From Raillietiella orientalis (lineage: Eukaryota), in assembly GCA_036172245.1 (NCBI GenBank), contig JAYWIR010000074.1, forward strand, positions 186,001 through 250,000: a DNA stretch of 64,000 nucleotides, read 5' to 3'. Shown in pieces: positions 1,779-55,491 of this stretch. The stretch's first letter is position 1; every line of letters starts with the position of its first letter. The notes beneath the pieces are model-generated. The model was not told where the DNA came from. It was given only the letters and a program-made list of their open reading frames with translations, and searched no databases. The position numbers and the translations under genes are program-made.

Positions 1779-2091
1779 GCGCAAGAGATCGAACGGATCT
1801 CCGGAGGGCGGCAATAGTACTGGTGTGGGAGAGCGAAAAGTTGCGCTGTCGCCTACCTGCTTCGGCCAGCCGTCGAGGCCGCGGCTCGGGGCGTGCAGTT
1901 CGACGATTACGGTCGTGTCGGCCAGCTGACTCTCAGGTGGTCCGACTCGATCGATCTGATCGTCAGGAACGTGTACGCACCGAGCGGCGCGGAGGATGTG
2001 GAAAGAGGTTTTTCTTGCTCCATCGCGACTGGCTGACCGAAGCAGGCGTGCGGAATGCTTATGTGGTTGCAGGCGATTTCAACGTTCGCCT
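1779..2091 (+). mobile_element. APE fragment of a lineage D host element (QEI...NVYAP...GDFN)
   Basis: Aligns with 45472-45801; resumes at 10426 after the B' insert. Confidence 0.85.
2076..2091 (+). repeat. 16-bp target-site duplication, left copy (ATTTCAACGTTCGCCT)
   Basis: Identical copy at 10426-10441. Confidence 0.9.
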
Positions 2092-2238
2092 TCATACGAG
2101 TCGGACGTGATTTCTTGTCGCTCCGTGGTTTCGCTGTTTGGTTGTGTTTGTGCATCCCACTGCACATCCCCAAGCAGTGAACAACGCAAAGTGTAAGACC
2201 TCGAGTCTGTAGTTCAGGAACTTTCTGCAGCTGGAGTG

Positions 2239-3430
2239 ATGGCGAGAACGTGTGCGAGCCGTGCGCCACCGACCAGGAGCATTGTGGACGTGGCTGCTTC
2301 TGCAGTCGTACAAGGATTCCTCTCCGACTAGGCGGACATGCAAGCCTATGCAGCCCAGGCCTACAAGCCTGCTGCCTGCTTTAACGTAAGTGTAGTAGGT
2401 AAGGCTGGGGAGGATTTCGAGGGTGAACTGTACCGTGTGGGAGTGCGAGAAGAGGACCTCATAGCACTGATGCCTGTTCCAGCATTGGGCTATGTGAAGG
2501 TTTGATACAAGCAGTCTGCACTTGTGCAGAAACTTCTCCGCACTCCTTTGTCCATCCGCGGAAATGAAGTTTTTCCTTCCGCGATGGACGAGTCTTTTGT
2601 CGTTGTTCCCTAGGACGTAGAGCCGGAGATCAACGACAAACAGTTGATGGACGCGTTGGCGAAATTCGCAACCGTTCATGCGGTGTGGAGGAAGGAGAGT
2701 TCCTACAGGAAATTCCCTTCCGCACACACAGGATTTGCTGCGGTTATGGTAACTGTTTCTAACTGCCGCACGCTGCCTACCACGCTACAGGTCATCGGCA
2801 CGGACGTTCACCCGTGGTTCGTTGGCAAAACTCGCGCGTGCGAGCAATCCGGCAAAGAAGGGCATCGGGGTAAAGAATGCCCTTCCCCGAAGTGCCGCTC
2901 CTGTAAGGAGTCCGGGCACGAAATTAGAAAGTGCCCGGACATAAACAAAACAAAGAAGGCTGCTAGAATCCGGGGTGCTAAAGAGTGCGCAGAGGAGAAA
3001 ACAGCATCCTCAAAAAAAAAAAAACTGGGAGGCTCGCGGAAGACCGAAGATAAAAACGGCCCGAGCGAGGTCTCAAAGTTGGCTCCCTTAGAATCAAAGC
3101 CCCAAAAAAGCAATCGCGCGGCAAGGAAGCCATTTAAAAAAGGGAGAGAAGGCTCTGCGCGTACCGTTACTGTCCCAGTAGCTGATCACGGAGACGCTAC
3201 TTGCGAAATGGGATCAGTAAAACCAGTCGCTCCGTGCGACAAGGCGAAAGAAGCACACGCGAAAGAAAATTGCGTGGTAACCGTCTCCTTGAGAGCTCTT
3301 TACATTTTGGAGGCTTCAGTCGGAAACCTCACGCAGGCGTCTGCAGGTCCGTCGAAAAAAGCCGACAAAAGCAGCGCTGATTTGCCTCAAAACACGCAGC
3401 AACCAGCTGCATGCTCCCCAAGAAGACAGA
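2239..3430 (+). pseudogene. B' ORF1, degraded and interrupted
   Basis: ORF 2644-3693 has KFATVHAVW and knuckle CRSCKESGHEIRKC; stops and frameshifts upstream; start approximate. Confidence 0.75.
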
Positions 3431-6400
3431 TTGCCCCAAGTCCCACAAGGGGTGGGGTAAATTTATTCTTCTATAAAAATACACTTCTTACATTCGCACT
3501 CTCATTCACTCAATGCAAACACTTTGCACTTGGGAGTCCTTGGGTTGCACTGGAGTTCTGCTTTTCAGGGAAGGAATCCAGTTGGATGGTCCCGGGCGTC
3601 GTCCTCGATCCACTTCAGCATGAATCGGTATGTCCAGCCTTGGATTTTCCCACAGTTTCTAATGCCGATTTCCCTCTTCAGGAGCCCTTGTAGGATCTCA
3701 GTCGGTGCTGCGGCTCTTCTAGCTTTCCTCATTATCCACCACCGCTCAAGTATGGCGGCGATGAAGAGGGCGATGGTCGTCCTTACCATGGGATTGTAAC
3801 AGACAACATTACCATCCCCATAGAGCATCCCGGCGAGGATCTCCATTACGGACCTGGTGATGAGTCCGATGATCCTTTTCAGGATCAGTCAGTCATGCAG
3901 CAATGTATGACACGTCAAGACGTGAATTCCCGTGTCGTTGTGTCCCCATGCCTTGCAGTCTCGATCATCCCGCCTTTTGGTATAGTATTGCATTCGCGAC
4001 CCACTCTGGATTCCTCCATGATAAAACATCAGGAGGTCACCCTGAGTCCTCGGCGGATGGTCATCCCTCCAGAGCATCGTGCCATTCGCTAGCAGGTTGA
4101 TCCGGTCACTACCGTAGCGATGAGCGGCTTCCTGGAGGGCACTGATGTCACGGTCTTCTTCCCGAATTAATCTTCGGAAATTTATTTCGAATACCCTCGA
4201 CCACGCGAAGTCGTTGCGGTTGAGCCACACGTCGAAAGTCATGTGGGTGAACCTTCCTAACATCATCTCTAGATACCCAAGTATACGAGCGTGATGTAGG
4301 TACCCTCCTCGCCTCCACTCCTAAATTCGTTGTAGGGTAACTCTGGACCGCTGGTGGAACCAGCTCCTCGTGTCAGGCGGGACGGGAAGCATCGAAGGGA
4401 TCACCAGGATGGACTCGACCTGCCAGAGTTCCCAACTTCTCGGCACGATCTTGATTTTGTGCTTTCGCACCAGGCGTTGCTTCCTCGTCCACGTTGGGTC
4501 GATATGTTTCCATTCGCATGCTCGGCCTAGCAGAGCAGTCATCAGGCCTTTCGAGTTCTTCAACAACAACGCGTATTCCCTGTGCGCCGCATAGGGCCAG
4601 TCATCCCAGTGGGTGGCAATGTCCAGGATGTGTCGCGTATCCATGATTTCTATGAAGTGTGCAAGCGACTTCATCCCGAAACCGCCTTCTTCCCAGGGAC
4701 GACAGAGGGGTTTTAGTCGAACTCTTGGGCCATAGTCGCCACAGAGTGTTTTTCTCTGCAGCTTGTCGAACTTCCTCGTGGTGTCCTTCTTCATCCTTTC
4801 GAAGGCCGCCCCGAAAAGCACTTTTGGAAGGAGTACTTTGTTCCATATGTTGGCCTTTCGCTTCATTCCAAGGTCCGTTCGGGTGTACTTAGCTGCTTCC
4901 TTGGCCCTTTTTCCTAGGATCTCGGACCACAATAGCTTCGACGCGGAGACGTCGCCAATGTAGACACTTAGGTACATGGCATTGTCCACAGTTCGCAATC
5001 CCTTTCTCCCTAGAGCGAAGAGATCGAGGATTTCAACGGGCAAGAGCTGGAATTTCTGGGCGTTGATCTTAAGACCGACGCCTTGATCCATCAGGTCTAC
5101 CACTTCCAGAAACGCTCGTTGATTTCTCTCTACCTTGAAAAAGAAGAATAGATCATCAGCGTATGTTAGATGGGTAAGACGCTGGCCATCGATTGTTATA
5201 CCTTGCAGTCGTCCGCTCTTCTCGATAAAGGACGGCAACGCCTTCATGTAGATAAGGAACAGCATCGGACTTTGCTAATCGCCCTGCCGGACTCCCTGTG
5301 CCATCCAGATTGCTGCCGTCTGCTTGCCGTTGATTTTGATTAGGCAGTACTGGTTCTGGGGTACCACCCTTACGAAATTGCTGAAGTGTTTTGGATGGCC
5401 TACCTTCTCCAGAATCTTCAGCAGCATCCCATGGTCGATGGAGTCGAAAGACTTTTCCATGTCAGCGAATACCAGCGCCAGGTTCTCGCCGACGTATCGG
5501 CTGAGTCCGACGGTGGCCTGGGCACACTTGACATTGCCCGACATGTGACGTCGAGGGACTGCACACGTTTGGACCGGAGAGATGAGCTTCGACATGACCC
5601 TGCCTATGCGGATGGACCAGATCTTCGCCAACCACTTGGCTCCGGAGTTCAGGATTGAGATTGGCCTTCATTGAGCGATCTGTGTTGGGTCGCCTCCTTT
5701 AGGCAACATTTCCATCATACTCTAGTAGGAGGAATTAGGTAGTCTTCCTTCTTCACGGATGCAGAGGGTCAACGGGTGGAGCAAGCGCAGGTAGGCATGC
5801 AGGTACCGCTTGTAGTGCGTGATAGGAACAGTGTCAGGGCCCGCCGCTACATCCTTGCGCAGTTGTCGAAAAGCAGTCTTCACCTTATCTTTGGAGAATT
5901 CCTCCTCCAGTTTGTTCCGCTGGAGGTCGTCCGTCTTTTTCTCGAGATAGCTCAGAAAGCCTTGTTGACTAGAGCGACAAAGATGTTGTCGCCTGAAGTG
6001 TTTGGTGTAATCCCTGTGAAAGGCATCCACGATATCTTCGGTCGACAGTCGCTATTGACCGTCATACTGAATGCAGAAGATATCCGTTGCCAGGTTTCTC
6101 TTCTTTCGCACGCCTACCTCCTCTTTTATGTTGTTTAAGACGTTCCGACTCTTGTACTGATCGAAGTCCTTTGAGAGTGAGCGATCTTGGATGTTCAGCT
6201 CCCGGTACGCCTCCTGCCTCAAGCGCCTATCCTCGAATTGCATATTTGCAAACAGGTGTATCCTGTGTTTTAAGCTGTGCCAGTCGGCAACTCTTCTGAT
6301 TTTTGTGGTCTTTAGAATCGTCTCCAGGACATCCTGATATCCAGGATGAGTCTCGAACCAGGCGGGCATGCTAATGAGCGCCGCCCTAGTGCCTTGCCTC

Positions 6401-6700
6401 CGCCGAGCATTCTCCGTTCTTAAGGAAAACCGTTCTAACGGGTGATCGGACAGAGTGATCACTGTGTCTCGAAAACCCTGAATGCGCCGCAACATCCTTG
6501 AGCAGTTTTGCAAAAGCAGTCTTCACCTCGTTTTCGGAGAATTCCTCCTCCAGTCTATTCCGCTGGAGGTCGTCGGTCCTCTTCTCGAGATAGCTCAGAA
6601 AGGTTTGTGGACTAGAGCGACAGAGATGTTGTCGCCTGAAGTGTTTCGTGTAATGCCTGTGAAAGGCATCCACGATATCTTTAACGACTGTCGCTCTTGA
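3431..6700 (-). mobile_element. Lineage C LINE, 5'-truncated (end of APE, RT, 3' end), with an internal duplication
   Basis: GVRQGD, YADD, DMEKSFD in ORFs 4321-5265 and 5275-5631; C-type terminus at 3431-3467; ~6487-6700 repeats ~5845-6060. Confidence 0.88.
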
Positions 6701-9700
6701 TCGCGCAGGAGGAAAGCTACTTTGGCGGTGTGGCGACGCGCGTACGTGCGGCGTCGCGTTACTCTTAAGAGGAAAAATTGCGGAAGCGGTGAGTAGTGTT
6801 CGCTCCGATGACGACGGAGGGGTAAGCCAGCTTGGTATCAAGTGGTCTGAGTCCATCGATGTCTTGGTGACGAACATCAGCTCGCATAGTGGCTCGCGCT
6901 ACCTCGAAGATAGAATTGCGCTATTCGAGGATGTGAAATGCCACTGGCTCAACAACTCCGGCTCCCAAGTAACGCACCTCGTCGCAGGCGACTTCAACGT
7001 CTACCTGCTATCCGACGAATGGAGCTGCCCGAGGTAGCGAACGTCGGCCATCGAGATGTGCGCGTCAGTACGCGCTATCAATTTGATGGTCCGCGTACCT
7101 GAGATGGATAGGTCACCGGATCACACCTTCCTCGATGACAACCTGCACGCTCGTGTGGAAAGAAGAGGAAGATTGTCGTCCGCACTTTGTGATCATAACA
7201 GGTTGAAGTTCGAGCTCCTTCCGCCAGGCAAGGGGCCTCCGCTGAAAAACTGGAGGATGTCGGCAAACTGGCTTAACCATCCGGAGGCGACGGATCATCT
7301 CCGTCAGTACCTCCGGACCTTCGTCATCCGCGAATTCGCGGACTGGGATCATTTGAAAAGATCAGACCGCAAGTTCTGCGAACCGTTTCTCTTGCACCGG
7401 CTCCCGCAAGGATTTTGAGAAGGGGTCGCCAACAGCAGTACTTTCCTGCAGGCGCGCACCTTTTCCAGAAGCGCTGAACTCAGCCAGCTAGCGGAATACA
7501 AGTCGAGAGCCGAGCGACAGATCTGGCAGTCTGGAACATCTTGCTTGCTCGGCGAAAAAGGCCTGGAGTGCTCGACACCAGCCGGTATTCGCCGCATCGT
7601 AAGGCGTCAATACTCCTCCCTATTCGTGGTAGCGCATACGGAAAATATTTTTTCGGAGATACTTATGTTCCAGGATGCTCTCGTTGTTAGGGAAGAGGAA
7701 CGCGCATGTCTCGACGAGTCCTACACAGCAGAGGAAATTTCCTCCGCTATTGCGGGACTCCAGAGACGAAAAGCACCAGGTGAGGACGGGCTACCCGCGG
7801 AGTTCTATCAGAGCTTCTCGACGGAACTCGTCCCTCCGGTGTTTAGTCTCTCCCGTTGATGAGGGTCTCGGGGGATGTCCCCAATTCCTTCCGCTCAGCG
7901 AGGGTGCGTCTCCTGCCGAAAGGTGGAGACGAACGCCATCTCAACAACTGGCGTCCGATCATCCGGGTGAACTCGGACGTCAAGTTGTTCTCCAAGATGT
8001 GAGTTGCGCACCTAGGGAGAATCGCGCAGTCCTTGGTAAGCCCAGAGGAGACTTACGCTGTTCCCGGGCGGTGCAAGGAAGCAAACCTCCTGTTTCCCGT
8101 ACCTGGATGCAGCTGCAGGAGCGCGTTGCGCAGCCACGCCGATACGTGTCCAAGGCCGCTGCAAAAGGCACACGGTATCGACAGAAGCGTAAGGAGGGTA
8201 CGCCTGGTGCCTTGACGGTCGCAGTCGACCTGCACAAGGCGCTCGATTGCGTGAACCAAAAGCTCTTATTAGAGCTCCTGGAACGCCTAGGTCTCCCGGC
8301 GTATCTCCTGAAGTACTTACGCGCTTGCTGCCGCCACGCGCTAACCTGCATTTCTTTTAGCGGCTGCCACGTGTACGGTATTGCTGTGCGTAGGGGCATC
8401 ACACAGGGTGACAGCTTAACCTCGTTGCTCTTCAGCATCTTCTCCGAGCTGGTGCTGAGGGCGTACAGGCTGTCGCTGGAGTACCTGCCAAGCTCCTGTT
8501 CGCGTACGCCTGCCGTGGCTGCCTATGCAGACGACCTACTTCTTCTGCACCCCATCTCCACACCGGCAGCCAGTGTCGAAGATTTATTCGAACTGATTCG
8601 TCGGGGAGCGGGCGTGAGTGGAAACCGGAAGAAGAGCGTCGTCGTACCTGTAGGAGCGTCGTGGGAGGGGCAGTCCAACTAAATCCGCCTGGGGATCCTA
8701 ACGGCAGGTTATTTCCAGTACCTTGTAGTTCCGCTGCGCAACCTGGGTTCTGCCGAGGCGTGGTGGGACTGCCTTCAAAGGGCAGAGTTGGCAGTCAGCC
8801 CGTTCCCTAACGGCAAGTTCACCTTGCCGGAACAGGCAGCTATTTGGAACACCTTCGTGGCTCTTCTCGTTCGACCCCTGTTTTTCTTCTTGGACCCCTC
8901 CCTACACGGCTAAAGAGCTGTCAAAACGCCTGCAAAGGAACGCACTCTGGGGTCCGGCGCGATCCAGGATCGTCCTGAAAGACCTCGCGGCTCCACGTCG
9001 GGATGCTGGGCTTGGCATCCTTACGATGGAGAGAATCGGACTGCAAGTGCAGTTCCGGATGCTCGCACTGTGTGCTCAGCTATGGACATTCCCCCTGTGT
9101 GCGCCTGCGCGCATACTCCTAAGAAGGTGTGCAGGCTGTGAAGGACTTCATTCCTTGGTGTCTGGCATGCGTTACAGGAAACAGGGATTTGGCTTTCCTC
9201 TGAGGCAAATCGCCTCCCTATTGGAAGCCAATGCGTGGATTTCCTGCTGCCCGATGAACTACAATGCTTGGCGGTATGAGTCCATTGATTGTTGGGCTGT
9301 ATCGTTAGGAATAAGCCGTGAAGATCTTTGCCCCCAACGTCGATTTCAGCCTCAATCCCTTGCTGGACGAGGTGAAGTTTTCCTCCCTGGCCTCCACGCC
9401 GCTCGCCGAAGCACTGTCTGCACTCAAGGATCGAGATGAGAGTAGCCAGCCGGCGAAGTGGGTGTTCTCTCGCACCATTGCAGGTAGAACAAAACCAGTT
9501 GGCAAATAAGCCAAGAGCGAGCTTGCAGTTGCCGCCACTCCTCGTGCAGCACCAAAGGTATTACTTCGGTGAGAAGAAGAACTAGGTGTAGCTTTCGAGG
9601 AAATTACAATACCTATTTGGTGTTTGGACGGTTCGGTGTTTTTCTTTGCATGAAAGCAATACGTTTTGCTCTTCTTGCACTGAGGCTTGCGCTACAACGA

Positions 9701-10112
9701 GCGGTGCCACCGAGTTTACGGTGGTGTGGCTTCTTACTACTGTGCCCGGTGCGGGGCGACGGAGTCGTTCCCGCACCTTGTTATGCATTGCAGTGCCCTC
9801 CAGCAACTCTGGCGGTGGCAAGCAGCATCTTTTCGGCTTCCGGGGGACATTGATCGAGAAGTGCTACGACGCTTCTTCCAGCCACAAGGACTTTCAATGG
9901 CTGCGACGATTTCCACTGTTGGGTTCATCCGCGCCATCGTCACGGTCCGAGACGTGCTGGAGAACACTGGACAGCAATGTTGTGTCACCAGGAAGGCAGC
10001 TGACTTCATCAGTTCGGCAGCTTAGTGGCGAAACTTATATGAAGACACAACGGAGGAGCTAACCTTTATCCATCGCCGGATCACCAACGGCTTCGAACGA
10101 CGAAATCTGTGA
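6700..10112 (+). pseudogene. B' ORF2 (APE-RT-zinc finger), many lesions, N-terminus missing
   Basis: AGDFN, PGEDGLPAEFY, DLHKALD, GITQGD, AYADD, CARC...PHLVMHC; closely parallels B1 ORF2. Confidence 0.88.
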
Positions 10113-10425
10113 TCCGCCCTCATTTTATTTTTGATTGTTTTTTTTGTTCTGGCGTCCTTTTTCCCATACGCTCCGCAGTTCTTTTGGAGCTAGAACTTTT
10201 GATTTTACCGTTGACTGCGGAGCAATCTCAAAGTTCCCTAGCCGACTCCTCCCATTTACAATTTTTTTTTTTTTTTGGACTCCCTTCAGTCGTCCATGTT
10301 CTTCCGTTTTCCTGGCCTGCATGACAGGGGTGAATCTCCGCTGCATGTTTTCCAAATGCATTGCTGGGAACAATTGTTTAAGGCACGTTTATGTCAATAA
10401 ACGTATCGACGTGACCGGGTGAAAA

Positions 10426-10441
10426 ATTTCAACGTTCGCCT
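10426..10441 (+). repeat. 16-bp target-site duplication, right copy
   Basis: Identical to 2076-2091; the host APE frame (FNVRLKPD) continues after it. Confidence 0.9.
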
Positions 10442-12295
10442 GAAACCAGATGTGCCGAATCCCGAACGCGACCCGGTCAACGGAGTGTGCATGCCTTTGC
10501 ACACCAGTAATTTCTTGGCCAGTGCACCGGGGATGGAAGACAGCATTGACCACGCGGAAAGACTTCGATTGCGTCGACGAGAATGTCCTTCTGGAGCTTC
10601 TGGAACGCTTGGGCTTCCTGGCCTCATTAGTGGCCTATCTGCGCTCCTGCTGGCGCGACGCGCTTATCAACGTTTCTTTCAGCGGGCAGACCGTGCACGG
10701 CGTGCCGGTGCGGCGTGGGATCCGGCAGGGAGACAGCCTGAGCCCCTTGCTCTTCAGTACCTACTTTGAGTTGGTATTGAGAGAGTACCGGGGAACTTTG
10801 GCGCACCTGCCGCACAACTGTGCCGGTACGGCGGTTGTTTTAGCGTACGCGGACAACCTTCTGCTGCTGTTCCCTATGTTTATCCCGGCTTTGGAGTTCT
10901 TCGACCTGCTGCATCGGGAAACCGGACTTCCGGTGAACAGGGCGAAGTCGCCCGTGATGCCAGTTGGTGCGGCGTGGGCAGGGCAGCAGGACTGGGCCCG
11001 TTTGGGGATCCTTAGGGTAAGGTACTGCAAGTAGCTTGGTGTGCCGTTCGGGGACTACTCCTCTGCGGAAGTGTGGTGCGGCAGCCTCTAAAAAGTAAAG
11101 ACGGCGATCGGCCGGTTCCTCGACGGCAGGTTTTTCCTGCCTGAACGGGCCGCAGTTTGGAACACGTTTGCGGCTCCTCTCCTCCGTACCCTGCTTGTTG
11201 TTTGCCATACGTTCGAACGGTAGTGCCTGGTTGCAGGAAACCGTTCGAACGTGGGGACAGTTCGGCATTCAACGCTCCCAACAGGAACGTAGGTTTCTGT
11301 TTGAGGGTTCGAGAAGTTGCACGCTTTGTGAGTTCCTGGAGGATCCAAAGAAGAGAGCGTAGGCATGAAGAACCCCTTTTTCTGCTGCGATGCCCTACCT
11401 GATGGAAGATGTGGACAGCGATGTTGCGGCGAAGTGGGAGGTTACAGTAACAATCTAAGGAAAGGAGAAGAAGATGGGAGTGTGGAATACGAACAAGTTA
11501 ACAGACGCTGCAACCCCGAGTACGCCTTCCAATGAACTTCCATGCTGTTGCGCGCTGCTCGACGTTCCCATTGAACGTTTGAAGTGGCCCAAGGTAGTGA
11601 TGAACACCTCCATCTCCTTCTTAAAATAACAGCAGTCGGCATTTCTGTTGCAGTACTGAAGGCTCTCCTGCAACGTCCGCCGACACCACTGGACCTGGGG
11701 AGTGGTGGACCCCGATTGCGTCAGGTGTACGGAACGGGTTCCCTCTTCCACCTGCTTGTGGATTGTGTTGCCCTTCGGCCCCTTGGGTTTCGCTTTGCAG
11801 CGGCCATCCGAATCCCCTGCCGCAACCCCACGCTCTGAAAGCCCTCTTCGTTGCCGACGCCCTTCGGCCTGCGGCCTCGTTGGCAGCTTTGTGCTGCCTC
11901 CGCGGGATCGTCGATGCCTGGAGCATTGCGACGCGAGGACCACACGACCAGAGTGCCATCCACCCAGCCTCCCAGTTTCTGAGGAGGGCGTCCAGATGGC
12001 CTCACCTGCATCCAGGAATACAGAAAAACCTTCTCGGCATCCTTCAAAAGATGCAACGGCCCCACCAGCAACTGTGATCCTTTCCCTTACCCTCCCAACT
12101 TTACTTTCCTTTTTTGTTTTGTTTTTTGTTTTTCTTCCTTTCCCCTGCTGCCGTGCTGGACCGTACCGTTCTGCGAACCGATGACCCGATAGGCTCTGTG
12201 TTTCTTCGTGCGTGCCTGGATCAATGGTTCAGCCACTGCACATCTTTGTAAATGTTCATTTTAGAATAAACTCTTCGGCGAAATCCGGGTGAAAA
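10426..12295 (+). mobile_element. Remainder of the lineage D host (internally deleted APE/RT, C-terminus, 3' end)
   Basis: Matches ~45786-45913, then ~47010-47670, then ~48030-48128; GIRQGDSLSPLLF; 3' terminus at 12265-12295. Confidence 0.85.
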
Positions 12296-15200: not shown

Positions 15201-16155
15201 GGTTTTCGAAACGCTCTCCGAAGTTTTGAGGTTTCTTTCCCTCGATTCGCGGCGTTTATTTCGCGATGCGAAACGCGCTTCTTTCTTTCACTTTTGTTTT
15301 TTAAAAAGAGTTCCGGGCACTTTTTTTTTGTGTGTCCGGGCTCTTGGCATTAACGACAAGTGGCCGAGGGACACTTAGTAAGGCGGTGACCCTCCGGCCT
15401 GCATTCCGCGCACACAAGCGTTTGCCCCGCAAACTAGTCATTCCATCCACCTGCAGTCACGTGAGCATTGCCCGGTGATCCGCTGTCGTCAATCGCACTT
15501 GCGCGATCCCGCTGTGGTGGTCTTCGAAACCCTCAGCAGGGTATGGCAACCTTCAAAGCGCGTGAACAGAGGCGAATTTTTCAAGTGCCTCCAAGACCTG
15601 GCGGTCTGTAAGGAACTTGCTCACTCCACTCAGCCGGACAACGAACGATTGATCCGCAGTGGCGGCAAGTATTTCCTGCCCACGAATAAGCAGCAGCGTG
15701 TGCAGCAAACGCTGCGTAAGGAGAGCGTCCTTACTGGACACCGCCCAGTAGCCGCAACCACTCATGGACATGATGGACTCTAGCTGGCCTTTTTGAACTC
15801 CAATCCGTTGGAGTTCCTGGCCAATCTCGCGCCCATCCCGCTCAGGCATAAGCACACTTACCTTATACCTGAGTGAAGGCGTGTAGCCATTTGCTACATA
15901 CGTTTGCATCTCAGGGCTATCGAGCGAAGGTCTCATGGTAGCCGCGAGGGCAGCTACCTGGGCGAAGGTCCTAGCCGTCGGCGAGGACATGGCTCCTTGC
16001 CAGCAGCCGAAAACGCCATCTAAGGAACAGGTACCGTCCCTTTCTTGCGGCAGCTGTTCCTCTTTGCTGCCATTGCAGCACAGAAGCACAGCAGAGCCAA
16101 AACACACAAGAGTCAGCATACCGCGGAGCGACGGAAAAGCACGTCCGTACGCGGC
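12296..16155 (-). mobile_element. Lineage G LINE, 5' part (ORF1 ~15990-14190, APE, RT N-terminus), cut at the HKAFD-equivalent motif
   Basis: GACGTG at 16140-16145; SLRYKVS ORF1; WNVN, LQEMH, NVYAP, GDFN in ORF 13417-14025; PGENGLPAKFY in ORF 12221-12991. Confidence 0.85.
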
Positions 16156-22600: not shown

Positions 22601-22900
22601 TTGCTTCCGCCGTGGATTGTCCGTTCTTAGGGAAAACCGCACCAACGGGTGATCGGACAGAGTGGTCAAAGTCTCGAAAACCCTGATTGCGATTCCCTAG
22701 TTCGGTGCTGTGGAGTATGTGATCGATCGGCTTGTGACTTGCTGTTCGCCATACCAGTCCGAACTCGTCCGATAGTCGCCGATAAGCCGTCCTACTTCTG
22801 GCGTCTTGGCAATGAATGATCTCATCCAATAAGTTGAGATCACCAGCAACAATCACCACGTCCTTGGGGCGACCTTTTCACGGAGTGCTGCATGCAGCGC
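19639..22900 (-). mobile_element. Lineage C LINE, 5'-truncated (partial APE, RT, 3' end)
   Basis: AGDLN, IDH, LSDH, DMEKAFD, GVRQGD, AYADD in ORFs 21218-22859; decayed C terminus at 19639-19675. Confidence 0.88.
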
Positions 22901-39275: not shown

Positions 39276-39401
39276 GTACCCAAGGACTTCATAGTGGTAA
39301 AAAAAGTGCTAATGGTCTGGATGAGATTGTAGTGTGAATGTTTTTATAGAAAAATTTTAGAAAAATAAATTTACCCTACCCCTCGTGGGACTTGGGGAAA
39401 A

Positions 39402-43599: not shown

Positions 43600-46500
43600 G
43601 CTCTAGGGCGGACGTGTTTTCTCGTTGCTCCTCGGGCCAGAAAGTCGTCGTGTGGTTCGGGAAGCCCGCTGGGCCAGGAAGCAGCGGCAACGCCGCCCCC
43701 AGAGGCGATATAGAGCCAGGGGGCGGCGGCAACGTCGCCTTTAGAGGCGATGGAGGTGGGGGCATCCCCCCCACAGAATCGGTCCCCGCTGCAGCGCGGG
43801 TGTGGATCGCCGTTGTGTCGGCGCCATCGCCTGCAGCCGCGGCGGAATTGTCGGCCTATGTAGAGAAGTACAACCCCTCATTGTTCTACAAGGTAGGCAA
43901 TCTATATTCTTTAGAGAGCGCAACCGCCTTCTCGAAGGGCATGCGCGCTCTCGATATGAAAGAGGAGGAGCTTAGCGCTATGACCATCCGCAGCGGGGAT
44001 CAGTACGTTGAGGTCATCTGCAAACATGCAGAGCTGGCCCAACGACTGCTTGAAACCCCCGTTGTGATAGGAACACGCAGGCTCCTCCCTATTACGGCGG
44101 ACCGCAGCATGGTGGTCCACCTCTTAGGTGTTACCGTGCGGAAGCGCAAGGAACAGGTTCGCGCCCAGTTGGAGGAATACGGAAAGGTCCACGCGCAGTG
44201 GAAGAAAGTTAGTCCTTTCGAGGACTACAAGGGGCTGCAACACGGTCTCACTGCTGCGCGCGTGAGCGTTCGGGAGGGCTGCACTCTTCCCCACAAACTG
44301 GTGGTCGAAGGCGAAACCGTCGACCTCTGGTATGTGGGGAAGCCGAAATACTGTGGCTTCTGCAATACGTCGGGCCACCTCAAAAAGAGGTGTCCTAATG
44401 TGCAGTGCCAAGTATGTGGCACAATGGGCCACACGAGGAAGGTGTGCCCAAAAGCAGCAGTGCGGGTGGTTGCCAAGAGAAACCTTAAAAAACGCGCCCG
44501 GCTTCTGCAGAAAAGGCTGGCGGCGAAAGCTGCCGCGAAGGCTGTGCCACCCGCTCCCAAGACCCAGGCCGCACCCCAGACCCCTGCGACCAACGCCGAA
44601 AAAGTTGAGGCAGCCGGACAGGAGACTGGTTGGCAAGTGGCAACTGCCAAAAAATTAAAGAAGGAGAGGAGGATGGAAAGGAAAATCGCCTACCAACAGA
44701 AGAAGAAAGAGAAGGGTAGCGCGATAATTAAAGAGTGCAGCGTCGTTGTCGAACGCGTTCTCGATGTTGCCGAACGCTGCCGGAAATAACTCGCCGCTGC
44801 CGACGAGCTCCGTTCTGTTGACACAGTCAACAGCGAGGAAAGCGAGCCGGCGGCGGCGTCCGTCATCCACACCACCATCGATGACGTAGCCTTCGCGCGA
44901 GCCGCGGAGGAGCTGGCAGCCTCGTTGCAGCCATAACCCTCCAAGGCTGGCAAGAAGGCCGTAAGGCGTCCGGCCTCCCCTCAGGAGTCCCTTACTTCCA
45001 CCCCCGAGGTGGATGCCGGAAGCGCAGCCTCCGTTTCCACGGCAAAGCGCAAGAAGGCTTACGTAAGTCCACAAAGCCAAGGAAGCTCGTATTCCCCGTC
45101 GAAGGGGAAGAGATGGGTTCCGCAAGCGAGGGTGCCATGAGCGTGGGAAACTCTCGGGACCCGTCGCCCGGGAGACTCCCACGCGCGGACACGGAGGGGA
45201 TGGAGGGGGGGTGGAGGCCGCACAGGTGCCTCAGGTGCCTGAGAAGGCAGAAACCCCCATGGATACCCCGCCCGCCTCGCAAGAGGAAGGCTCCCCACAC
45301 CTGAATCTTCCCAGCAGTAATGCCGGAAATCTCCTGCCGCCGTCGTCTACGCAACGCCGTTTGGAACGTGAACGGCATCACAGACCCCGGCAGGAGACCA
45401 GACATGGCCGCCCTTCTGGAGTCCTACGACCTCGCGCTGCTGCAGGAGATCCACGTGATCTCTGCAGAACAAGCGCAAGAGATCGAACGGATCTCCGGAG
45501 GGCGGCTACGGTACAGGTGTGGGAGAGCGAAAAGTTGCGGTGTCGCCTACCTGCTTCGGCCAGCCGTCGAGGCCGCGGCTCGGGGCGTGCGGTTCGACGA
45601 TAACGGTCGTGTCGGTTAGCTGACTCTCAGGTGGTCCGACTCAATCGCTCTGATCGTCACGAACCTGTACGCACCGAGCGGCAAGGACCTGATGAACAGG
45701 AGGGCGAGGAAAAAGCTTTTCCTTGCCCTCCGGAGAGACTAGCTGACCGAAGCAGGCTTGCGGAATGCCCATCTGGTTGCAGGCGATTTCAACGTTCGCC
45801 TGAAACCAGATGGGCAGAATCCCGAGCGTGACCTGGTCAACGAGGTGTGCATGGCGGTGCACACCTGTAACTTGTTGGCCAGTGCACCAAGGATGGAAGA
45901 CAGCATTGACCAGGTGTTTCTTGACGAGCACCTGTGCCCTCGCGTGGGCAGGCGCGGCAAGTTACCGTGCGAGCTGTCCGACCATCGCCCGCTAGTCCTC
46001 GGGATCCATTAGCGCGACAGGAGCCCCCCCTTGTCAGCGTGGCGTCTCCCAGGGGACTGGCTGAAGCTCTTAGACGCGGCGGAACATCTCCGCACATTCA
46101 TAGGGAGCTTCAGGCTGCGGACACTCAGGGATTGGGACCGCTTCAAGCGGTCGGACTAGGAGTTCTGCGATCAGTTCTCTCTGCCCCGCCTACTCACGGG
46201 TTTTGGGACCGGGGTCCGTAACAAAGGAGCCTACCTGCAGGCCCGTCGTTACGCCAGGACCCCCGACATGCGCAGGCTGGCAGAATACAAAGCGGGAGCC
46301 GAGAGGCAAGCCTGGCAGTCCGGATCGGCCAGCTTACTGGATGATCAGGGCCATGAGCATTCGGCACCTGCTCAAATCCGCCGCCTGCTGCGGAGTTACT
46401 ACTCCTCCCTGTATTCCAGGGCACCTCCAGAGAGGAACGTTTACGACTCCTGCTTCAGGAAGGCGCTTCAGCGATCGGAAAGGAGCAGAGAAAGACCCTC

Positions 46501-48125
46501 GACGAGCCTTTCACGATGGACGAGATCCTCTCGGCCATCGAAAAGCTCAAGAGGCGAGAGGCTTCAGGGGAGGACGGCCTGCCCGCGGAGTTTTATCAAA
46601 CTTTCGCGGCTGAGCTTACCCCCCTGGTACAGCAACTCACCTTGCTGATACGCGAAACAGGTGACGTTCCCGCCTCGCTTCGTTCGGCAAAGGTGCGGCT
46701 GCTCCCTAAGGGAGGAGATCTGAGGAGCACGATCAACTGGCGTCCCATCACAATAGTGAATGCGGACGCCAGGTTGCTAGCAAAGGTTTGGGCAGAGCGT
46801 TTGGGACGGGTTGCCAACATCTTCATCAGCCCAGAACAGACATATGCTGTTCCCGGGCGAAGCATGGAGGCGAACCTGTTCCGCGCTTCCACCTGGCTAG
46901 AGCTCCAACATGAAAGGAGCTTGGTGTGCAGCCGGCATTCCGGTGCGTGCGCCGGCAGGGGGTTGGATGGTCGGGAGGGGGAGGGAGCCCTTGCGGTCGC
47001 AACCGACTTGCGGAAAGCATTCGATTGCGTCGACCAGAATCTCCTTCTGGAGCTTCAGGATCCCTTGCGCTTCCCGGCCTCATTAGTGGCCTATCTGCGC
47101 TCCAGCTGGCGCGACGCGCTTTTCAACGTTACATTCAGCGGGCAGACCGTGCACGGCGTGCCGGTGCGGCGTGGAATCCCGTAGGGAGACAGCCTGAGCC
47201 CCTTACTCTTCAGTACCTACTTTGAGTTGGTACTGAGAGCGTACAGGGGAACTCTGGCGCATCTGCCGCACGACTGTGCCGGTACGCCGGCCGTTTCAGC
47301 ATACGCGGACGACCTTCTGCTGCTGCTCCCTATGTCCACCCCGGCTTCGGCGGTCGAGGAGTTCTTCGACCTTCTGCATCGGGGAACCGAACTTCCGGTG
47401 AACAGAGCGAAGTCTTCCGTGATGCCAGTTGGTGCGGCGTGGGCAGGGCAGCAGGACTGGGTCCGTTTGGGGATCCCCACGGTGAGGTATTTCAAGTACC
47501 TTGGTGTGCCGTTGCGGGACTACTCCCCTGCAAAAGCGTGGTCCGGCTTCCTCCAAAAAGTGGAGACGGCGATCGGACCGCTCCAAGGCGGCAGGTTTTT
47601 CTTGCCTGAACTGGGTGCAGTTTGGAACACGTTCACGGCTCCTCTCCTCCGCCCCTTGCTTTTTGTTTGCCCCTCCACAGAGAGAATAAAAAAGCGGACA
47701 AATGACCTCCTTGGTATCGCCCTTTGGGGCAACGGGAGGGCCCGAGATTGCTTAAAGGACTTGTGCGCTCCTCGTCGGGATGGTGGTCTGGGCCTCCTGA
47801 CGCTGGAGCGGCTTTAGCTTCAGCTCCAGTTCCGCTTGTCGGCATTCGTTCCAGAGTTGTGGTGCACCTGTTGGTGCATCCCTGCACGTCTCCTTCTTCA
47901 GCAAGCCACCGGCAAGACGGGACTGACGTCGTTTCTTGCACTCCGTCGCCGCGTGAACCGATGCGGACTCCAGCTATGGAGGGTGGCTGCGCTGTATCGA
48001 AAAAACCCAGGATTGCTCACCTGTCGCCTGTTGAACGGTAGCGCCTGGTTGCAGGAAAGTGTTCGAACGTGGGGACAGTTCGGCATGCAACGCTTCCAAC
48101 AGGAACGAAGGTTCCTGTTTGGGGG
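43600..48125 (+). mobile_element. Lineage D LINE (D1), 5' end intact, 3' end deleted
   Basis: GACGTGTTTT at 43611; knuckles CGFCNTSGHLKKRC and CQVCGTMGHTRKVC; ORF2 from 45320 with WNVNG, GDFN, DLRKAFD, AYADD. Confidence 0.9.
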
Positions 48126-49584
48126 TTGCACGAGGGACCTTTGTTGAAGTCTTCTTTCCTTCATTACGGTTCCTCACTTCGCGTGGCGCCGTAAATGGAG
48201 ATTGTGCTCCATGGCCATCTTTGAAGCCATTAGCGTCTTTGGACGGGAGCACTTTCGATGGCTCCGACACGCTCGTCATGGACGCTGCCTTCGGAAGGGC
48301 TTTTAATCCCTTCGTTGGCATGGCATCCGCGCCAGTCGAGAGCTTGCTCTCCGATTGCGACGGCGTGAGATTTTTCTCCGCTTTCGCGGTGTTGGATCGC
48401 GACGCGGATTTTTTTTTTCCGACTTTCGAAGTCGACACGGCACAACCCTTCTTACCCGATTTGGGCTTCTCAGCCACTGCAGGAGGTGAAGGAATGGATC
48501 TGACGGTACTGGAAGTGTCCTTACCGCCGTTGTCCATTGGCGTCCCCGCCGGTTGCTCGAACTCCGAGAGAGCCGGGCGTGCTTGGGAAGGACAGCTATT
48601 GCGCCTAGGGGGACTTACCATTGTTTCGGATTCCCCGCACCCTTTCTTTTGCGGCTCCCCTGCCGCGAGAGGGGGCGCGCAGGGCTTCGCGTGCGAGGTT
48701 TCCTGCTGCTTTGGGGCGACATTCCGCCTCGCGATTTTTCGGAATTTCTGCCGTGGGGTCTCCAGGTTTTTCGCAGATTTTTTCTTTTTATCCGCGCTTT
48801 GTTTTTTAAAATTGAGCTCCGCGGCTGCCTTTTTTCGCAAAAGATCCGGGCAATTTTTCAATTGAAGCCCGGATAGTTTGCAATAACGGCATTTTCTAGA
48901 GGGGCATTTATCCAAACAATGCTCCTCCTTCCCGCATTGCTCGCACGTTCTTACTTTGCCCACGAACCACAGGTGAACGACCGTGTCTTTCACCTGTAGT
49001 TTGGTGGGCAGCAGACGGCGGTCCGGCATTGTAAGCCGGACTCCAGCGACTCCGCTATGTATGGACGGGAAGTCCTTGAGGTTGCTACGCATCCTCCACA
49101 GCGCATGGACCGTGGCGAATTTCGCCAATGCGTTCCGAATATCAATATCGCAGATTTCCGACTCGATGTCGAAAATCTCCGCCACAAATGAGTCGTCCTT
49201 GGCGGCCGGGAAGACCTTCTGGCCACGGATCGACAACGGGTCAGTTCATCGTTGAACTGATTTCCGTCGCGCGCAGAAAGAAAGCCACTCACCTTATATC
49301 GGAGAGCAGTTCTATAGCCTTGGGCTACGTATGCCCGCAACTCCGACTCGTCGAGTGGTTTCCCTTTGACGGCTGCTGTGGCAGCAACGTCAGCAAAACT
49401 CCTCTCCAGTGTCGAGAAAGACGAAGTGGAGGCGGCCGTCGGTTCCGCGATTGCAGATCCGAATGCTGTTCCTACAACTTGGGTAGCTTCGGGTTGGGTC
49501 GACATCGTCGTCAAAATGTACGACGCCAAGATGAACCGGATGAAAGCACAGAGACGAAAGCGAAGAAAAACACGTCCGCACTCG
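48125..49584 (-). mobile_element. Tandem lineage B copy (B2): 5'UTR + partial ORF1
   Basis: Highly similar to 53927-55499 apart from a deletion near 49240. Confidence 0.9.
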
Positions 49585-49592
49585 ATTGAAAT

Positions 49593-49622
49593 TTATCACC
49601 CGGTCACGCCGGGGCGTTTATT
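49593..49622 (-). terminator. LINE 3' terminus: AATAAA + CCCGG-CGTGA-CCGGG hairpin + short A tail (best-preserved example)
   Basis: Minus strand AATAAACGCCCCGGCGTGACCGGGTGATAA; homologs at other element ends; function inferred. Confidence 0.7.
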
Positions 49623-49905
49623 AATAATAATAAACTGGTCAGGGACAATGTCCCCAACCAACAGAACGACAGAGAACATAGAAAAATTACCGCCACGCAG
49701 GCCTGGTAAACAAACCGCTCGCAGCGTGGGGGGAATGAGGGGAAACAAACAAAAATCAAAAACTGGAGGGAAGGGAAAAGGTTTTTTGGTTAGGCTCCGT
49801 ACTCACGGGGATTTAAACGATGAGCACCTCAAATGTTCCGGAGCCTATGGGGACGCGGGTGTAAAAAGAAAATACAAATTTAGTTTATGGAGGGTAGGGC
49901 AATGA

Positions 49906-52900
49906 TCACCGGGTTGGCCGCTGATGAGGGTGTGTAAACCGGCGGTGTATTGCGGCGAAATTCCTCTTTGTCTCCTCTATCAAATGAGGCCATCTAGCGG
50001 ATGCTCCCATGTAGAAGGATGCTTTGCTGATTACCTCTTGGTACTGTCCGTTGATTACCAACGCCTGGCGGACGGAAACTATCGCGCGTATGCAACCGAT
50101 GGTTGCAATCCTTGCGCTTACTGAAAGCCCGCTCGGCGTGAAGAATCGTCGCAGCAAGTCTCTTGCGGTGTCCACGGGATGCAATAGTGCTGTTGCCAGC
50201 CTACGCCACAGTCCTTGTAGGACACCGCAGTCCAGAAGTAGGTGCGGAATCGACTCCTTCGATCCGCACCGAACGCAGTTCGCAGACGCAAGTCCCCCGG
50301 AGTCACGATGCCAACGCTCGTTGCACTGAAAACCCCAGTGAACGAAAAGCAGCACGGCTTGTTTCCAAGCAAGGGGGAGCAGCGAACTGTCCATACACTG
50401 TGGAGGGACTACAAGTTCTTCGGGGGTGACAGCAAGTTCTTCTGCCCACCGGAGAAGTCCCTTTGCAGTAGCACGAGGAGTGGCGGCGTCCGCCAACTCA
50501 CTTGTCTTCCAGGTGCCAAGGAGTTTGGTTCTTCCCGCTATCGTGCAGGAAACCTCCCACCTCGCCGGTTGGTAACTGTCGTTTCTTGCCCTGAGGGCAG
50601 ACAGCGCTGCGGCAAGAGGCGGGGCAGCCAGGGTAGAAAACTTCACCTCGTCCTGCAGTACTTCTTCCAAGGATCGTGGAAAAAATTGGCGCAGGGGGCG
50701 AAGATCTTCAGGGCGTATTCCTTGGAACGCCGCCCAGGATTCAACAGACTCCTGCCGCCAAGCTTCAAAGTTCATTGGGCGGCAGGAGATCCAAGAGTGT
50801 GCTTCCAGAAGTGCGGTCAACTGCCGCAATGGAAACCTGAAACCCCGCTTCCTGTATTGAGTGCCCGGCAAAAGCGAGAGAAATCCTCCGCTGCCGGCGC
50901 ATCTCCGCAGGAGAATGCGAGCTGGCACACACAGGGGGGAGGTCCATAGCTGGGCACACAGTGCCAGCAGTCGGAACTGCACCTGCAGTCCGATTCGCTC
51001 CATTGTCAGGATACCCAAACCAGCATCCCGACGCGGAGCTGACAAATCTTTAAGGCGGATCCTGGATCTCGCCGGACCCCAGAGAGCGTTCCTGAGCAGG
51101 CGCTTAGCCCGCTGTTTTGCCGCATAGGGGGGGTCCAAAACAAAAAACAGGGGCCGGAGGAGGGGGGCCACAAAGGTGTTCCAAATAGTCGCCCGTTCCT
51201 GCAAGGTAAACTTGCCGTTAAAGAACGGGCTGATGGCCAACTCTGCTTTCTGAAGACAGTCCGCCCACGCTCCGGCTGCGCCGAAAGCGCCCAACGGAAC
51301 GCCAAGGTACTTAAAGTACCCGCCCGTGGGGATCCCCAGGCGGATCCAGTCGGACTGCCCCTCCCACGACGTACCCACAGGAACGACCACGCTCTTCTCT
51401 CTGTTCACGCTCACGCCCGCTCCTCGACGAATCAGGTCGAAGAAATCCTCGACACTGGACGCCGGGGTGGACATGGGGAGCAGAAGAAGCAGGTCATCAG
51501 CGTAGGCGGCCACGGCAGGCGTTCCCGGGCAGGAGCTTGGCAAGGGAGACAGCGTCAGCCTGTATGCTCTTAGCACCAACTCAAAGAAGATGCTGAAGAG
51601 CAACGGGCTTAAGCTGTCGCCCTGTCGGATGCCCCTACGAACGGGAATACCATACGCGCGGCAGCCGCTAAAAGTGATGCAGGTTAGCGCGTGGCGCCAG
51701 CACGCGCGCAAATACAGCAGGAGTTGCGCCGGGAACCCAAGGCGTTCCATAAGCTCCAAAAGCAGCTTCTGGTTTACGCAGTCGAACGCCTTGGGGAGAT
51801 CGACCGCGACCGCCAAGGCACCTGGCGTTCCCTCCTGCCGTCGGCGCCTGTTCTTTTTGCCTGCGGCAGTGACTTTCGCAGCAGCCTGGCTTTGCTGCGC
51901 CACAACTTCCTGCAGCTGCATCCATGTACGCGCGAAAAGGATGTTCGCCTCCATGGATCGTCCCGGAACCGCGTAGGTTTGTTCCGGGCTCACCACAGAT
52001 TCCGCGATTCTTCCTAACCGCGCGACTCACAGCTTGGAAAACAACTTGACGTCCGAGTTCACCAAGGTGATCGGACGCCAGTTGTTAAGTTGGCGCAAGT
52101 CTCCGCCTTTCGGCAGGAGACGCACCTTCGCTGAGCGGAAGGAATCAGGGACATTCCCGGATTCACTCATCAGCGTCGCGAGTTTCAGCATCAAAGGAAT
52201 GAGCTCCACTGCAAAGCACTGATAAAACTCTGCAAGAGCCCATCCTCGCCTGGCGCCTTTCGTCTCTTCAGCCCAGCGATGGCGGACGAAAATTCATCCG
52301 CCGTGAAGGGCTCGTCGAGACGTTCGCGTTCCTCCTCGCCGACAACACGAGCATCCTGAGACAGGAGTATCTCAGAAAGAATATCCTCCGTCGGGGAATC
52401 CGCGTAGAGCGAGGAGTAGTAGCGTCTCACAATGCGGCGTACTTCGGCTGGGGCCGAACATTCCTGGCCTTTGTCGTCCAACAGGCATGCTGCTCCGGAC
52501 TGCCAGACCTGGCGCTCGGCCCTCGCCTTGTACTCTGCGAGACGCCCGACATCCGCGCGTCTCGAAAACGTGCGGGCCTGCAGAAAGTCTCTCCTGTTGG
52601 CCACGCCCTCTCCGAAACCGCGTGGAAGCCGGTGCAAGGGGAATTGGCAGCAGAACTCGCGGACAGATCTTTTGAGATCGTCCCAGTCCGCAAGTTCTTG
52701 AATGGCAAAGCCTCGGAGGTATCCACGTAGATGCTCCGCAGCCTCCGGTTGGCTAAGCCAATCTGCCTGCATCCTCCAGTTTTGCAACGGAGGCCCCCTG
52801 CCTGGCGGAAGGATCTCAAACTCCAACCTGTGGTGGTCAGAAAGCCTAGTCAACAATCTTCCTCTCCTGCCCACACGCGAATGCAGGTTTTCATCGAGGA

Positions 52901-53498
52901 AAACGTGATCGAGCGATCTTTCCATTCCAGGTTCGCTGACCATCAAGTTGGCGGCGTGCACGGACGCGCACATCTCGATGGGCAGCGCGCGTTCCCTCGG
53001 GCGGCTCCAATCGTCGGAGAGCAGGCGGACGTTGAAGTCCCCAGCGACGAGGTGCGCCACTTGGAAACCGGAGTTATTGAGCCAGTGGCTCTGCACCTCA
53101 CCAAAGAAAGCTACTCTTTCTTCGAGGTAGCGAGAGCCACTCGGCGCGTAGACGTTCGTAACGACGAGATCGATGGACTCGGACCACTTGATGACAAGCT
53201 GGCCTATCCGTCCGTTGTCATCGAAACGAACACTGCGCACCGCTTCCGCCATTTTTCCTCTTACGAGGAACGCGACGCCGCACGTGTGTGCGCCGCCGCA
53301 CCGCCAATGTAGCGTTCCGCCTGCGCGCTCCTCGATTTCGGCTGCCTGCTCGTCGGAGATTACGTGAATCTCCTGCAGCAACGCGAGGTCGAAGGGGCGC
53401 AGGGCGTTGGCTACTAATCGCCTCTTCTCGTCGTTCTGCAGTCCGTTCACGTTCCAACACGTTACGGACAGACGACGAGAAGACGCGATTCCCCGCAT
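49906..53498 (-). pseudogene. B1 ORF2 (~1200 aa APE-RT-zinc finger); one frameshift (~52235) and one TGA (52027-52029)
   Basis: ORFs 52191-53498, 52027-52209 and 49906-51996 join into one protein: WNVNG, LQEIH, NVYAP, GDFN, LDH, SDH, WRPITLVNSDVK, GIRQGD, YADD, KYLG, CVRC...H...C. Confidence 0.93.
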
Positions 53499-53503
53499 TA
53501 CTG

Positions 53504-55444: not shown

Positions 55445-55480
55445 GATGAAGCGGATGAAAGCACGGAGACGAGAGCGAAG

Positions 55481-55491
55481 AAAAACACGTC
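55481..55491 (-). promoter_or_regulatory. Conserved 5'-end motif GACGTGTTTTT (candidate internal promoter element)
   Basis: Recurs close to the 5' end of ten elements in the window; function inferred. Confidence 0.55.

Follow-up and report, generated by a model that had tools for sequence, protein, structure and literature searches.

Can a retrotransposon take as its landing site the codons for a catalytic motif in another retrotransposon's endonuclease? The question is raised by a 64,000-nucleotide (nt) stretch of Raillietiella orientalis DNA (assembly GCA_036172245.1, contig JAYWIR010000074.1, positions 186,001-250,000 of the forward strand), here called the window, to which all counts of junctions, sites and copies refer unless a public run, X1, is named. 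The element concerned, lineage B, appears from its sequence to be an autonomous non-long-terminal-repeat retrotransposon of the apurinic/apyrimidinic endonuclease (APE) type, that is, a long interspersed nuclear element (LINE), with a gag-like open reading frame 1 (ORF1) carrying CCHC knuckles and an ORF2 composed of APE, reverse transcriptase (RT) and a C-terminal zinc-knuckle region. Its conserved ends are ..GGACGTG-TTT.. on the 5' side and AATAAACG, a small hairpin and TGA(A/T)AA on the 3' side. We propose, with a probability of roughly 0.75, that B is a sequence-specific LINE whose nick falls on the bottom strand, opposite G^ATTTCAA, a sequence almost confined here to the codons for Gly-Asp-Phe-Asn (GDFN) in the endonuclease of a 'host' LINE clade. 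The Asp and Asn of GDFN are catalytic in APE enzymes.

The insertion of B' into host A

The first copy, B', interrupts the endonuclease codons of an element termed host A. In the following features, APE residues are numbered as in B1, the copy of B described in the next section, and host fragments were placed by tblastn with the B1 APE.

1779..2075, plus strand: left part of host A, APE residues about 62-165, ending ...VVAG-D (tblastn and codon table; 85% identical to A2, 45461-45801)
2076..2091, plus strand: left copy of the target-site duplication (TSD), ATTTCAACGTTCGCCT, codons D-F-N-V-R-L of host A (sequence match)
2092..3430, plus strand: 5' part of B', with the terminus TCATACGAGTCGGACGTG..., the 5' untranslated region (UTR) and a gag-like ORF1 with CCHC knuckles (5'-end comparison and tblastn)
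3431..6698, minus strand: nested, 5'-truncated LINE of family Y, between B' ORF1 and APE residue 68 (RVT_1 on minus-strand ORFs 4324-5667; the boundary at 3431 is approximate)
6699..10425, plus strand: 3' part of B', with APE from residue 68, RT, C-terminal zinc-knuckle region and 3' UTR ...AATAAACG..CGTGACCGGGTGAAAA (several stops and frameshifts)
10426..10441, plus strand: right copy of the TSD, ATTTCAACGTTCGCCT (sequence match)
10442..12100, plus strand: right part of host A, with APE to about residue 209, an internal deletion at 10553/10558 and RT from residue 79 (tblastn and alignment to A2)
45770..45810, plus strand: uninterrupted target in A2, with GDFN at 45782-45793 reading GGC GAT TTC AAC (alignment with the host A flanks)

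The initial annotation had described a B element in GDFN codons flanked by a perfect 16-bp TSD, with an empty site near 45782-45810, and this description holds. The repeat is exactly 16 nt long, the adjoining bases being G versus A on the left and T versus G on the right. On the plus strand the left flank reads ...VVAGDFNVRL, followed by five codons of the insert before a stop, and the right flank continues ...FNVRLKPDVPNPERD. In A2 the site is uninterrupted, CAGGCGATTTCAACGTTCGCCTGAAACC, and both flanks are colinear with A2 across it, at 85.4% over 343 nt on the left (78 of 90 positions in the final 92 nt) and at 112 of 128 positions on the right. A2 is a paralogous unoccupied copy and not an allelic empty site. 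Because the TSD and the uninterrupted paralogous site come together with lineage-typical 5' and 3' termini at both ends, B' in host A is a bona fide insertion.

The inserted DNA (2092-10425) measures 8,334 bp. Its type of 5' terminus recurs at 55500, 49585, 1778, 40763 and 18278, and its type of 3' terminus at 49593, 18266, about 29492 and 61319. It is not a plain copy of B; rather, it is a composite that contains the nested antisense LINE of family Y, which is 85% identical to 19640-22691 and 86% identical to 36603-38475. On its truncated 5' side, the nested copy bears a 220-bp internal duplication with 88% identity (5842-6061 and 6485-6703). B' itself is decayed, with in-frame stops at 7035 and 7416 and several changes of RT frame. 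Its ORF1 gives a tblastn match at 2146-3015 with 49% identity to that of B1, and its 3' part has 75.6% nucleotide identity to B1 over 3,276 nt. B' is assigned to lineage B because of its ORF2, its termini, and the TSD, which binds both ends into one event.

A second insertion, in host F

A further member of the lineage, B1, lies at the GDFN codons of a second element, host F, and is followed by a partial copy, B2.

55501..55994, minus strand: host F, APE residues 3-168, ending ...LIAG-D-F-N, GGAGATTTCAA at 55510-55501 (tblastn and codon table)
49593..55500, minus strand: B1, full-length copy of B, 5,908 bp, 3' end ...CGTGACCGGGTGATAA
49586..49592, minus strand: spacer ATTTCAA, which separates B1 (3' end) from B2 (5' end) and repeats the host F site
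48112..49585, minus strand: B2, 5' part only, ORF1 residues 3-533, 96% identical to B1, breaking off at 48112 against the 3' region of plus-strand A2
63349..63360, plus strand: uninterrupted GDFN site of F2, GGG GAT TTC AAC; homologous to F precisely as far as the B1 junction

The minus strand of host F reads ...KAHLIAGDFN (...GCGGGAGATTTCAA at 55510-55501), and the 5' end of B1 follows directly at 55500. F and F2 agree at 63 of 80 positions up to the junction and at 73% of nucleotides in the overall self-comparison. Both B1 and B2 had been placed at the GDFN position of this host. For B1 the placement stands (55501/55500), but B2 lies head-to-tail behind B1 with a target-derived spacer and is not seen joined to F in the window. 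The duplication of 7-8 bp claimed for this site is present as a repeat of ATTTCAA(T/TC) at the F|B1 and B1|B2 junctions; its length is, however, ambiguous at 7-9 nt because the first bases of the B 5' end blur it.

B1 is nearly intact, with three long minus-strand open frames for ORF1 (55513-53507), APE (53531-52194) and RT (52026-49909). Exo_endo_phos (E=3.6e-13, 52194-53531) and RVT_1 (E=1.3e-14, 49909-52026) lie on the same strand in the order endonuclease, then RT. The zf-RVT match (E=0.0085, 17.2 bits) falls below its cut-off of 27.5; CCHC pairs are visible in the ORF1 translations, and zf-CCHC matches in sister copies reach only about the cut-off. The best Protein Data Bank (PDB) matches of B1 are human LINE-1 ORF2p and L1 EN. 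B1 LVAGDFNVRL aligns with LIMGDFNTPL of human LINE-1 ORF2p, and LLQEIH with CIQETH, which bears out the identification of the target as the GDFN codon block of the host APE. Self-BLAST found no repeat joining the two ends of B1 or of B'. The 3' hairpins are present in B1 and in an element K and degenerate in B'; with modest z-scores of -0.65 to -2.48 they are anatomy and not evidence.

Are these two insertions separate events? On the RT tree B' and B1 are sisters with a support of 99 in the Shimodaira-Hasegawa-like approximate likelihood ratio test (SH-aLRT) and 68% amino acid identity over 681 columns; on the APE tree the support is 91. The hosts do belong to different lineages, as had been claimed: A and F are only 51% identical in amino acids over 99 APE columns, and A/A2/P and F/F2/F3 form separate sub-clades of a well-supported host clade (SH-aLRT 100). 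A2 is 85% identical in nucleotides to host A and F2 73% to F, which set against the 75.6% between B' and B1 means that the empty copies are closer to the occupied hosts than the two insertions are to each other. For this reason, and because TSD lengths and 5' junctions differ, the two events are taken to be independent. An alternative model assumes one ancient insertion, after which duplication or gene conversion multiplied the host-plus-B composite. The window does contain composites that were copied as segments (1-1792 and 38987-40777 at 93%; 40776-41723 and 63058-64000 at 80%). Under this model, though, the uninterrupted A2 and F2 would each need base-perfect excision, and the TSDs of 16 versus 7-9 nt and the differing 5' junction sequences speak against it, so that we give it hardly any credence.

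The sister lineage E inserts in antisense at another site (see below), and hence the target tracks the lineage; E3 and E4, two of its copies, are sisters with a support of 100. Outside the window, a HMMER search of 1.84 billion protein representatives yielded two close relatives, P0004 (56%) and P0005 (61%), the next matches being generic LINE RTs of about 30% identity. A word-index protein search returned one relative, and the nearest Atlas protein clusters carry RVT_1 and zf-RVT.

Two features of the B coding frames are recorded here as observations in their own right. An in-frame TGA occupies the same codon in B1 (52027-52029, minus strand) and B' (8000-8002, plus strand), in the context ...DVKLFSK(L/M)*VA(R/H)LGRI, where E4 has TCG; it is the only stop inside the B1 ORF2 frames. 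It may be an ancestral defect held in common, the outcome of parallel TGG>TGA decay, or a tolerated read-through. Programmed read-through was not supported by folding of the 96 nt that begin at this TGA (z = -1.84 for B1 and -0.41 for B', with -0.57 for the E4 control). An intron at the GTGAGT that overlaps the TGA was rejected, since the downstream sequence is conserved RT coding sequence. Secondly, at 52235 the window sequence of B1 shifts between the APE and the RT frame; an X1 contig (99% identical) has one extra base there, which would join the frames as ...EDGLLAEFYQ... The shift could reflect a private mutation or a mistake in the assembly.

Probable specificity for the GDFN codons

All three B copies of the window are at the target site. 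Both B 3' junctions break between the G and the A of the Asp codon (B' at 10425/10426, B1 at 49593/49592), the three 5' ends all lie 7-16 nt downstream of this G|A break point, and the insertions of B' in A and of B1 in F are in the sense orientation of their hosts. Twelve GDFN-equivalent sites are found in the window. Two of the four that read GATTTCAA are occupied (host A and F; those of A2 and F2 are empty), as opposed to none of the eight that read otherwise. Among the latter are the sites of the B copies themselves, where the endonuclease reads GACTTCAAC:

6987-6998, plus strand: GDFN of B' itself, GGC GAC TTC AAC, unoccupied
53042-53031, minus strand: GDFN of B1 itself, GGG GAC TTC AAC, unoccupied

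M also has GAC TTC AAC, unoccupied; E4 has GAC TTT AAC, P GAC TGT AAC, F3 GAT TTC CAC and two Y copies GAT CTC AAC, all of them likewise unoccupied. The suggestion of the initial annotation that the motif could escape by synonymous substitution is thus plausible, as the occupied sites read GAT TTC AA while B and its three nearest relatives have GAC TTC/TTT AAC and are unoccupied there.

A simpler explanation would be a short, generic nick preference, for example G^ATYTC in common with E, combined with a bias towards LINE-rich chromatin, the GDFN position being coincidental. Indeed, E and B 3' junctions are alike, both reading ..TGA(N)AA|AT(C/T)TC, and any insertion in this window strikes a LINE, for the entire 64 kb is composed of LINE fragments in a nested cluster tens of kilobases long. 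Counted over both strands, however, the window holds 59 GATTTC and 149 ATTTC, while four of its five GATTTCAA lie in GDFN codons. Given only a preference for GATTTC, two independent insertions in GDFN would have a probability of about (4/59)^2 = 0.005, and one lower still if all ATTTC sites are counted. Register, orientation and nick position are, moreover, identical in two hosts of 51% identity, and the public-run contigs described below supply a further flank of the GDFN type. A coincidence of this kind is in our view improbable.

The contigs of X1 include some that are 99% identical to B1 (36 differing letters and three gaps in 3,755 nt; 11 differing letters in 1,030 nt), one of which spans the F|B1 5' junction. 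In at least three contigs, the B 3' end is followed by ATTTCAATC and then by a sequence that diverges from B2 and reads L-R-L-L-S-V-D in the GDFN frame. This continuation does not occur in the window, where the nearest sequences, with one mismatch in 15, are at the GDFN sites of F2 and F3. It appears to be host sequence and thereby an additional GDFN-type 3' flank of B. At least two other contigs with a similar 3' end run into the antisense of ...V-I-S-A-E-Q-T-Q-E-I, a site of the E type. No generic AT-rich flank was seen among the loose ends of X1 that were listed, which are not a census. The B2 region at 48174-49543 has next to no cover in X1, which says nothing on the presence or absence of B2 elsewhere. 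One contig that joins a B-type 3' end to 55779 on the opposite strand has only 33 letters on its shorter side and is not interpretable. Runs X2 and X3 contain next to nothing of this stretch. In a metagenome scan with a 16-nt 3'-end pattern, none of 120 loci had the full B 3'-end signature. Four of them were flagged for an AATAAA upstream or an ATTTC/TTTC/ATCT start downstream and are taken as chance matches.

Several points weigh against the proposed specificity. Only two insertions are clearly independent, the B2 copy in the B1/B2 tandem being a possible third. The X1 contigs that resemble B1 may represent this very locus, sequenced from a second individual or from the sample used for the assembly, in which case the F|B1 junction seen there is not independent. 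The fifth GATTTCAA, at 5029, lies outside the GDFN motif and is empty; with this single outside site, the window data cannot separate a preference for GATTTCAA anywhere from one for the GDFN context. The core G^AT(C/T)TC at the junctions is common to E and B, so that the preference is partly generic to the group. The Asp codon of GDFN is GAC in four of four members of the B/E/M group and GAT in five of six of the A/F/P group, a contrast that follows the clade split, amounts effectively to one evolutionary change and gives no statistical support for immunity. Finally, the 5' part of B' has 65% nucleotide identity to B1 and 65-66% to the E copies, and is thus no closer to B1 than to E.

How, then, might B reach its site? 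It is proposed that recognition of the site lies with the B endonuclease, and not with RNA pairing or another domain, and that this enzyme nicks the bottom strand first, 5'-TTGAAAT^C-3', opposite G^ATTTCAA. In GGCGATTTCAACGT the predicted bottom-strand cut would be at 5'-TTGAAAT^C, and the B1 APE would not be expected to nick GGNGATTTCAAC and GGNGACTTCAAC equally. The free 3' OH would then prime reverse transcription of the B RNA from its 3' end (target-primed reverse transcription). The 3' end of the RNA, ...GUGA(A/U)AA, offers no complement to the primer end ...GAAAT-3', so that priming would be independent of pairing. Cutting of the top strand 7-16 nt downstream would leave a TSD of 7-9 nt (B1) or 16 nt (B'), and B would land in the sense orientation within the GDFN motif, truncating the host ORF2 and coming to lie inside the host ORF2 transcript. 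Re-insertion into the regenerated upstream copy of the site could yield head-to-tail tandems such as B1-ATTTCAA-B2. A further determinant beyond the core G^AT(C/T)TC, in the APE loops or elsewhere in ORF2, would set the choice between the B and E sites, and coding of its own motif as GAC-TTC-AAC may spare B from self-targeting.

RNA-homology guidance has been proposed for some rDNA-specific elements. Applied to the window, such a model would have B transcripts with flanking host sequence, made by read-through or co-transcription, anneal to other LINEs and so pick the site by nucleic-acid homology. It is in keeping with the sense insertion inside a host ORF, with the lack of a poly(A) tail and with the B1-ATTTCAA-B2 tandem, whose transcripts could end in target sequence. 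Little homologous sequence is available for pairing, however: past ATTTCAA the downstream flanks differ, with CGTTCGCC in A and TC-TCCGCC in the F-type flank, and upstream only the motif-coded bases are in common. An Rfam scan of the window gave no ribozyme or other RNA family, and so nothing in favour of a 5' ribozyme or of an RNA gene as target; a tRNA scan of the window likewise gave no match. We regard RNA guidance as unlikely and retain the reading of the site by the endonuclease.

Sister lineages and the LINE-only nest

What of the other elements in this nest? A Pfam scan of 220 window ORFs, each of at least 110 amino acids, gave only RVT_1, Exo_endo_phos and zf-CCHC at or above the curated cut-offs; matches below them were to zf-RVT, with stray weak ones to DUF5536 and Perm-CXXC. 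The copies of lineage E, whose termini are related to those of B, are:

<1-1778: E copy c1
18278-: E copy c3
-40763: E copy c4
-18266: E copy E3
about 29492-33706: E copy E4

In the host endonuclease, E occupies the A/Q-E-I codons (APE residues 64-66) in antisense, some ten residues C-terminal to the catalytic QE. Its junctions are with host A at 1779, with F3 at 40764, with a host fragment ending at 29491, and in the arrangement E3-ATCTCTTGCGC-c3, a head-to-tail tandem in which ATCTCTTGCGC is the spacer. Sites of this type are unoccupied in A2, P, F and F2, and lineage E has GCC GAA ATC at its own.

Family Y is a divergent LINE with GDLN in its APE, found at 3431-6698, 1-418, 19640-22900 and 36392-39404. 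All four E/B'-type 5' parts (B', c1, c3 and c4) contain it in antisense, roughly 1.35 kb from their 5' end; B1 and B2 lack it. Identity among the Y copies is 82-86% and among the sequences around them 65-75%, a pattern which suggests repeated use of one site in the 3' region of ORF1.

Single instances of other junctions have been noted. The 5' end of A2 (about 43600; 43595-43620) adjoins an element O in antisense just upstream of the RT motif A, KA(F/I)D. The RT-side end of the deletion at 10553-10558 in host A, just before the K-D-F-D motif A, coincides with this place. The 5' end of M (about 16155; 16137-16160) adjoins E3 in antisense, immediately before a KAPGxDG-like box.

A second type of LINE 3' end occurs three times, with AATAAACG, CCCGGG-loop-CCCGGG and TGGCAAC (63770-63804, 57800-57841, and 41490-41523 on the minus strand), each time followed by ..CAAAT(C/T)C.. 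in or beside a plus-strand APE near residue 300. The initial annotation also held B to be the only repeat-supported lineage inserting in sense. This is so for the junctions that can be read, except that one other 3' end, at 61319, adjoins same-strand 5'-UTR-like sequence. It belongs to element K (61303-61350, ..CGTGACCGGGTGAAAA), and the 5'-UTR-like sequence lacks its first 20 or so nt and leads into ORF1; this could be a tandem without a spacer or a target inside a 5' UTR.

The LINE coding remnants of the window contain 106 in-frame stops (TAG 47, TGA 35, TAA 24). At 27 of these positions the B1 codon is TGG for Trp, against TAG, TGA or TAA in the remnant, a hint that mutation of the repeats is biased towards G>A / C>T. 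A variant genetic code was rejected, as the mix of stops, many of them at Trp codons, is that of ordinary decay.

Taken together, these sites have led to a wider and tentative reading, to which we give somewhat less than an even chance: sister LINE lineages would live on each other, each with its own site in a conserved, motif-coding stretch, mutual targeting by itself creating and sustaining LINE-only islands of the kind seen in the centromere-associated Zepp clusters, and codon choice protecting each lineage's own gene. The sites would be GDFN in sense for B, A/Q-E-I in antisense for E, a fixed site in the 3' region of ORF1 for Y and, possibly, positions upstream of KAFD and of the KAPGxDG-like box for A-type and M-type elements. 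Were this so, an arms race would be running in the synonymous sites of catalytic motifs, as in GAC for GAT in B.

Known target-specific LINEs insert into rRNA genes, small RNA genes, telomeres, microsatellites and, in one case, a DNA transposon. A passage of PMC6719617 gives Tx1L, an APE-type LINE of the Tx1 clade that inserts into the Tx1D DNA transposon of Xenopus, as an example of one transposable element (TE) targeting another, and a passage of PMC4640811 lists transposons as one kind of target used by the target-specific non-LTR elements of the Tx1 and R1 clades. Like Tx1L, B would be an APE-encoding, sequence-specific LINE with another TE as its target; unlike Tx1L, its target is the protein-coding catalytic-motif codons of a related LINE endonuclease. 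The APE-type endonuclease of R1 reads sequence, according to the abstract of PMC1919474. As with R1/R2 and TRAS/SART, insertion of B is precise, orientation-specific and directed at a conserved multicopy sequence, with tandem and truncated copies at one site; whereas the targets of those elements are cellular rRNA genes and telomeres, the multicopy target of B is supplied by other LINEs.

The window also resembles, as a LINE-only nest, the nested Zepp/ZeppL clusters of green algae, for which passages of PMC8226300 and PMC3446292 describe insertion that 'targets existing copies'. By description, Zepp/ZeppL arrays are mostly 3' ends left by 5' truncation, while eight copies in the window have full 5' termini (B', B1, B2, c1, c3, c4, A2 and M) and several sister lineages each use a distinct, defined site. 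The head-to-tail arrangements B1-spacer-B2 and E3-spacer-c3 suggest that one site was used repeatedly, and so resemble the tandem TE dimers that arise when two insertions share a target site (abstract of bioRxiv 10.1101/158386). In the open-access literature searched, mostly titles and abstracts, no LINE that targets the endonuclease or RT motif codons of another LINE was found. Target-specific APE-type LINEs and TE-into-TE targeting are established; the present case stands apart by its type of target, a block of catalytic-motif codons in an endonuclease gene of related LINEs, with sister lineages at other defined sites.

A compact APE with a specificity of at least 8 nt, together with a close sister, E, of other specificity, would be a useful natural pair for mapping how APE enzymes choose their targets. 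For the LINEs themselves, a safe haven in the endonuclease codons of other LINEs would be a distinct strategy. Such a target is multicopy and is conserved by purifying selection on the host element, and an insertion there knocks out a competitor while costing the cell nothing. The same strategy would account, simply and at the level of sequence, for the origin and persistence of LINE-only nests.

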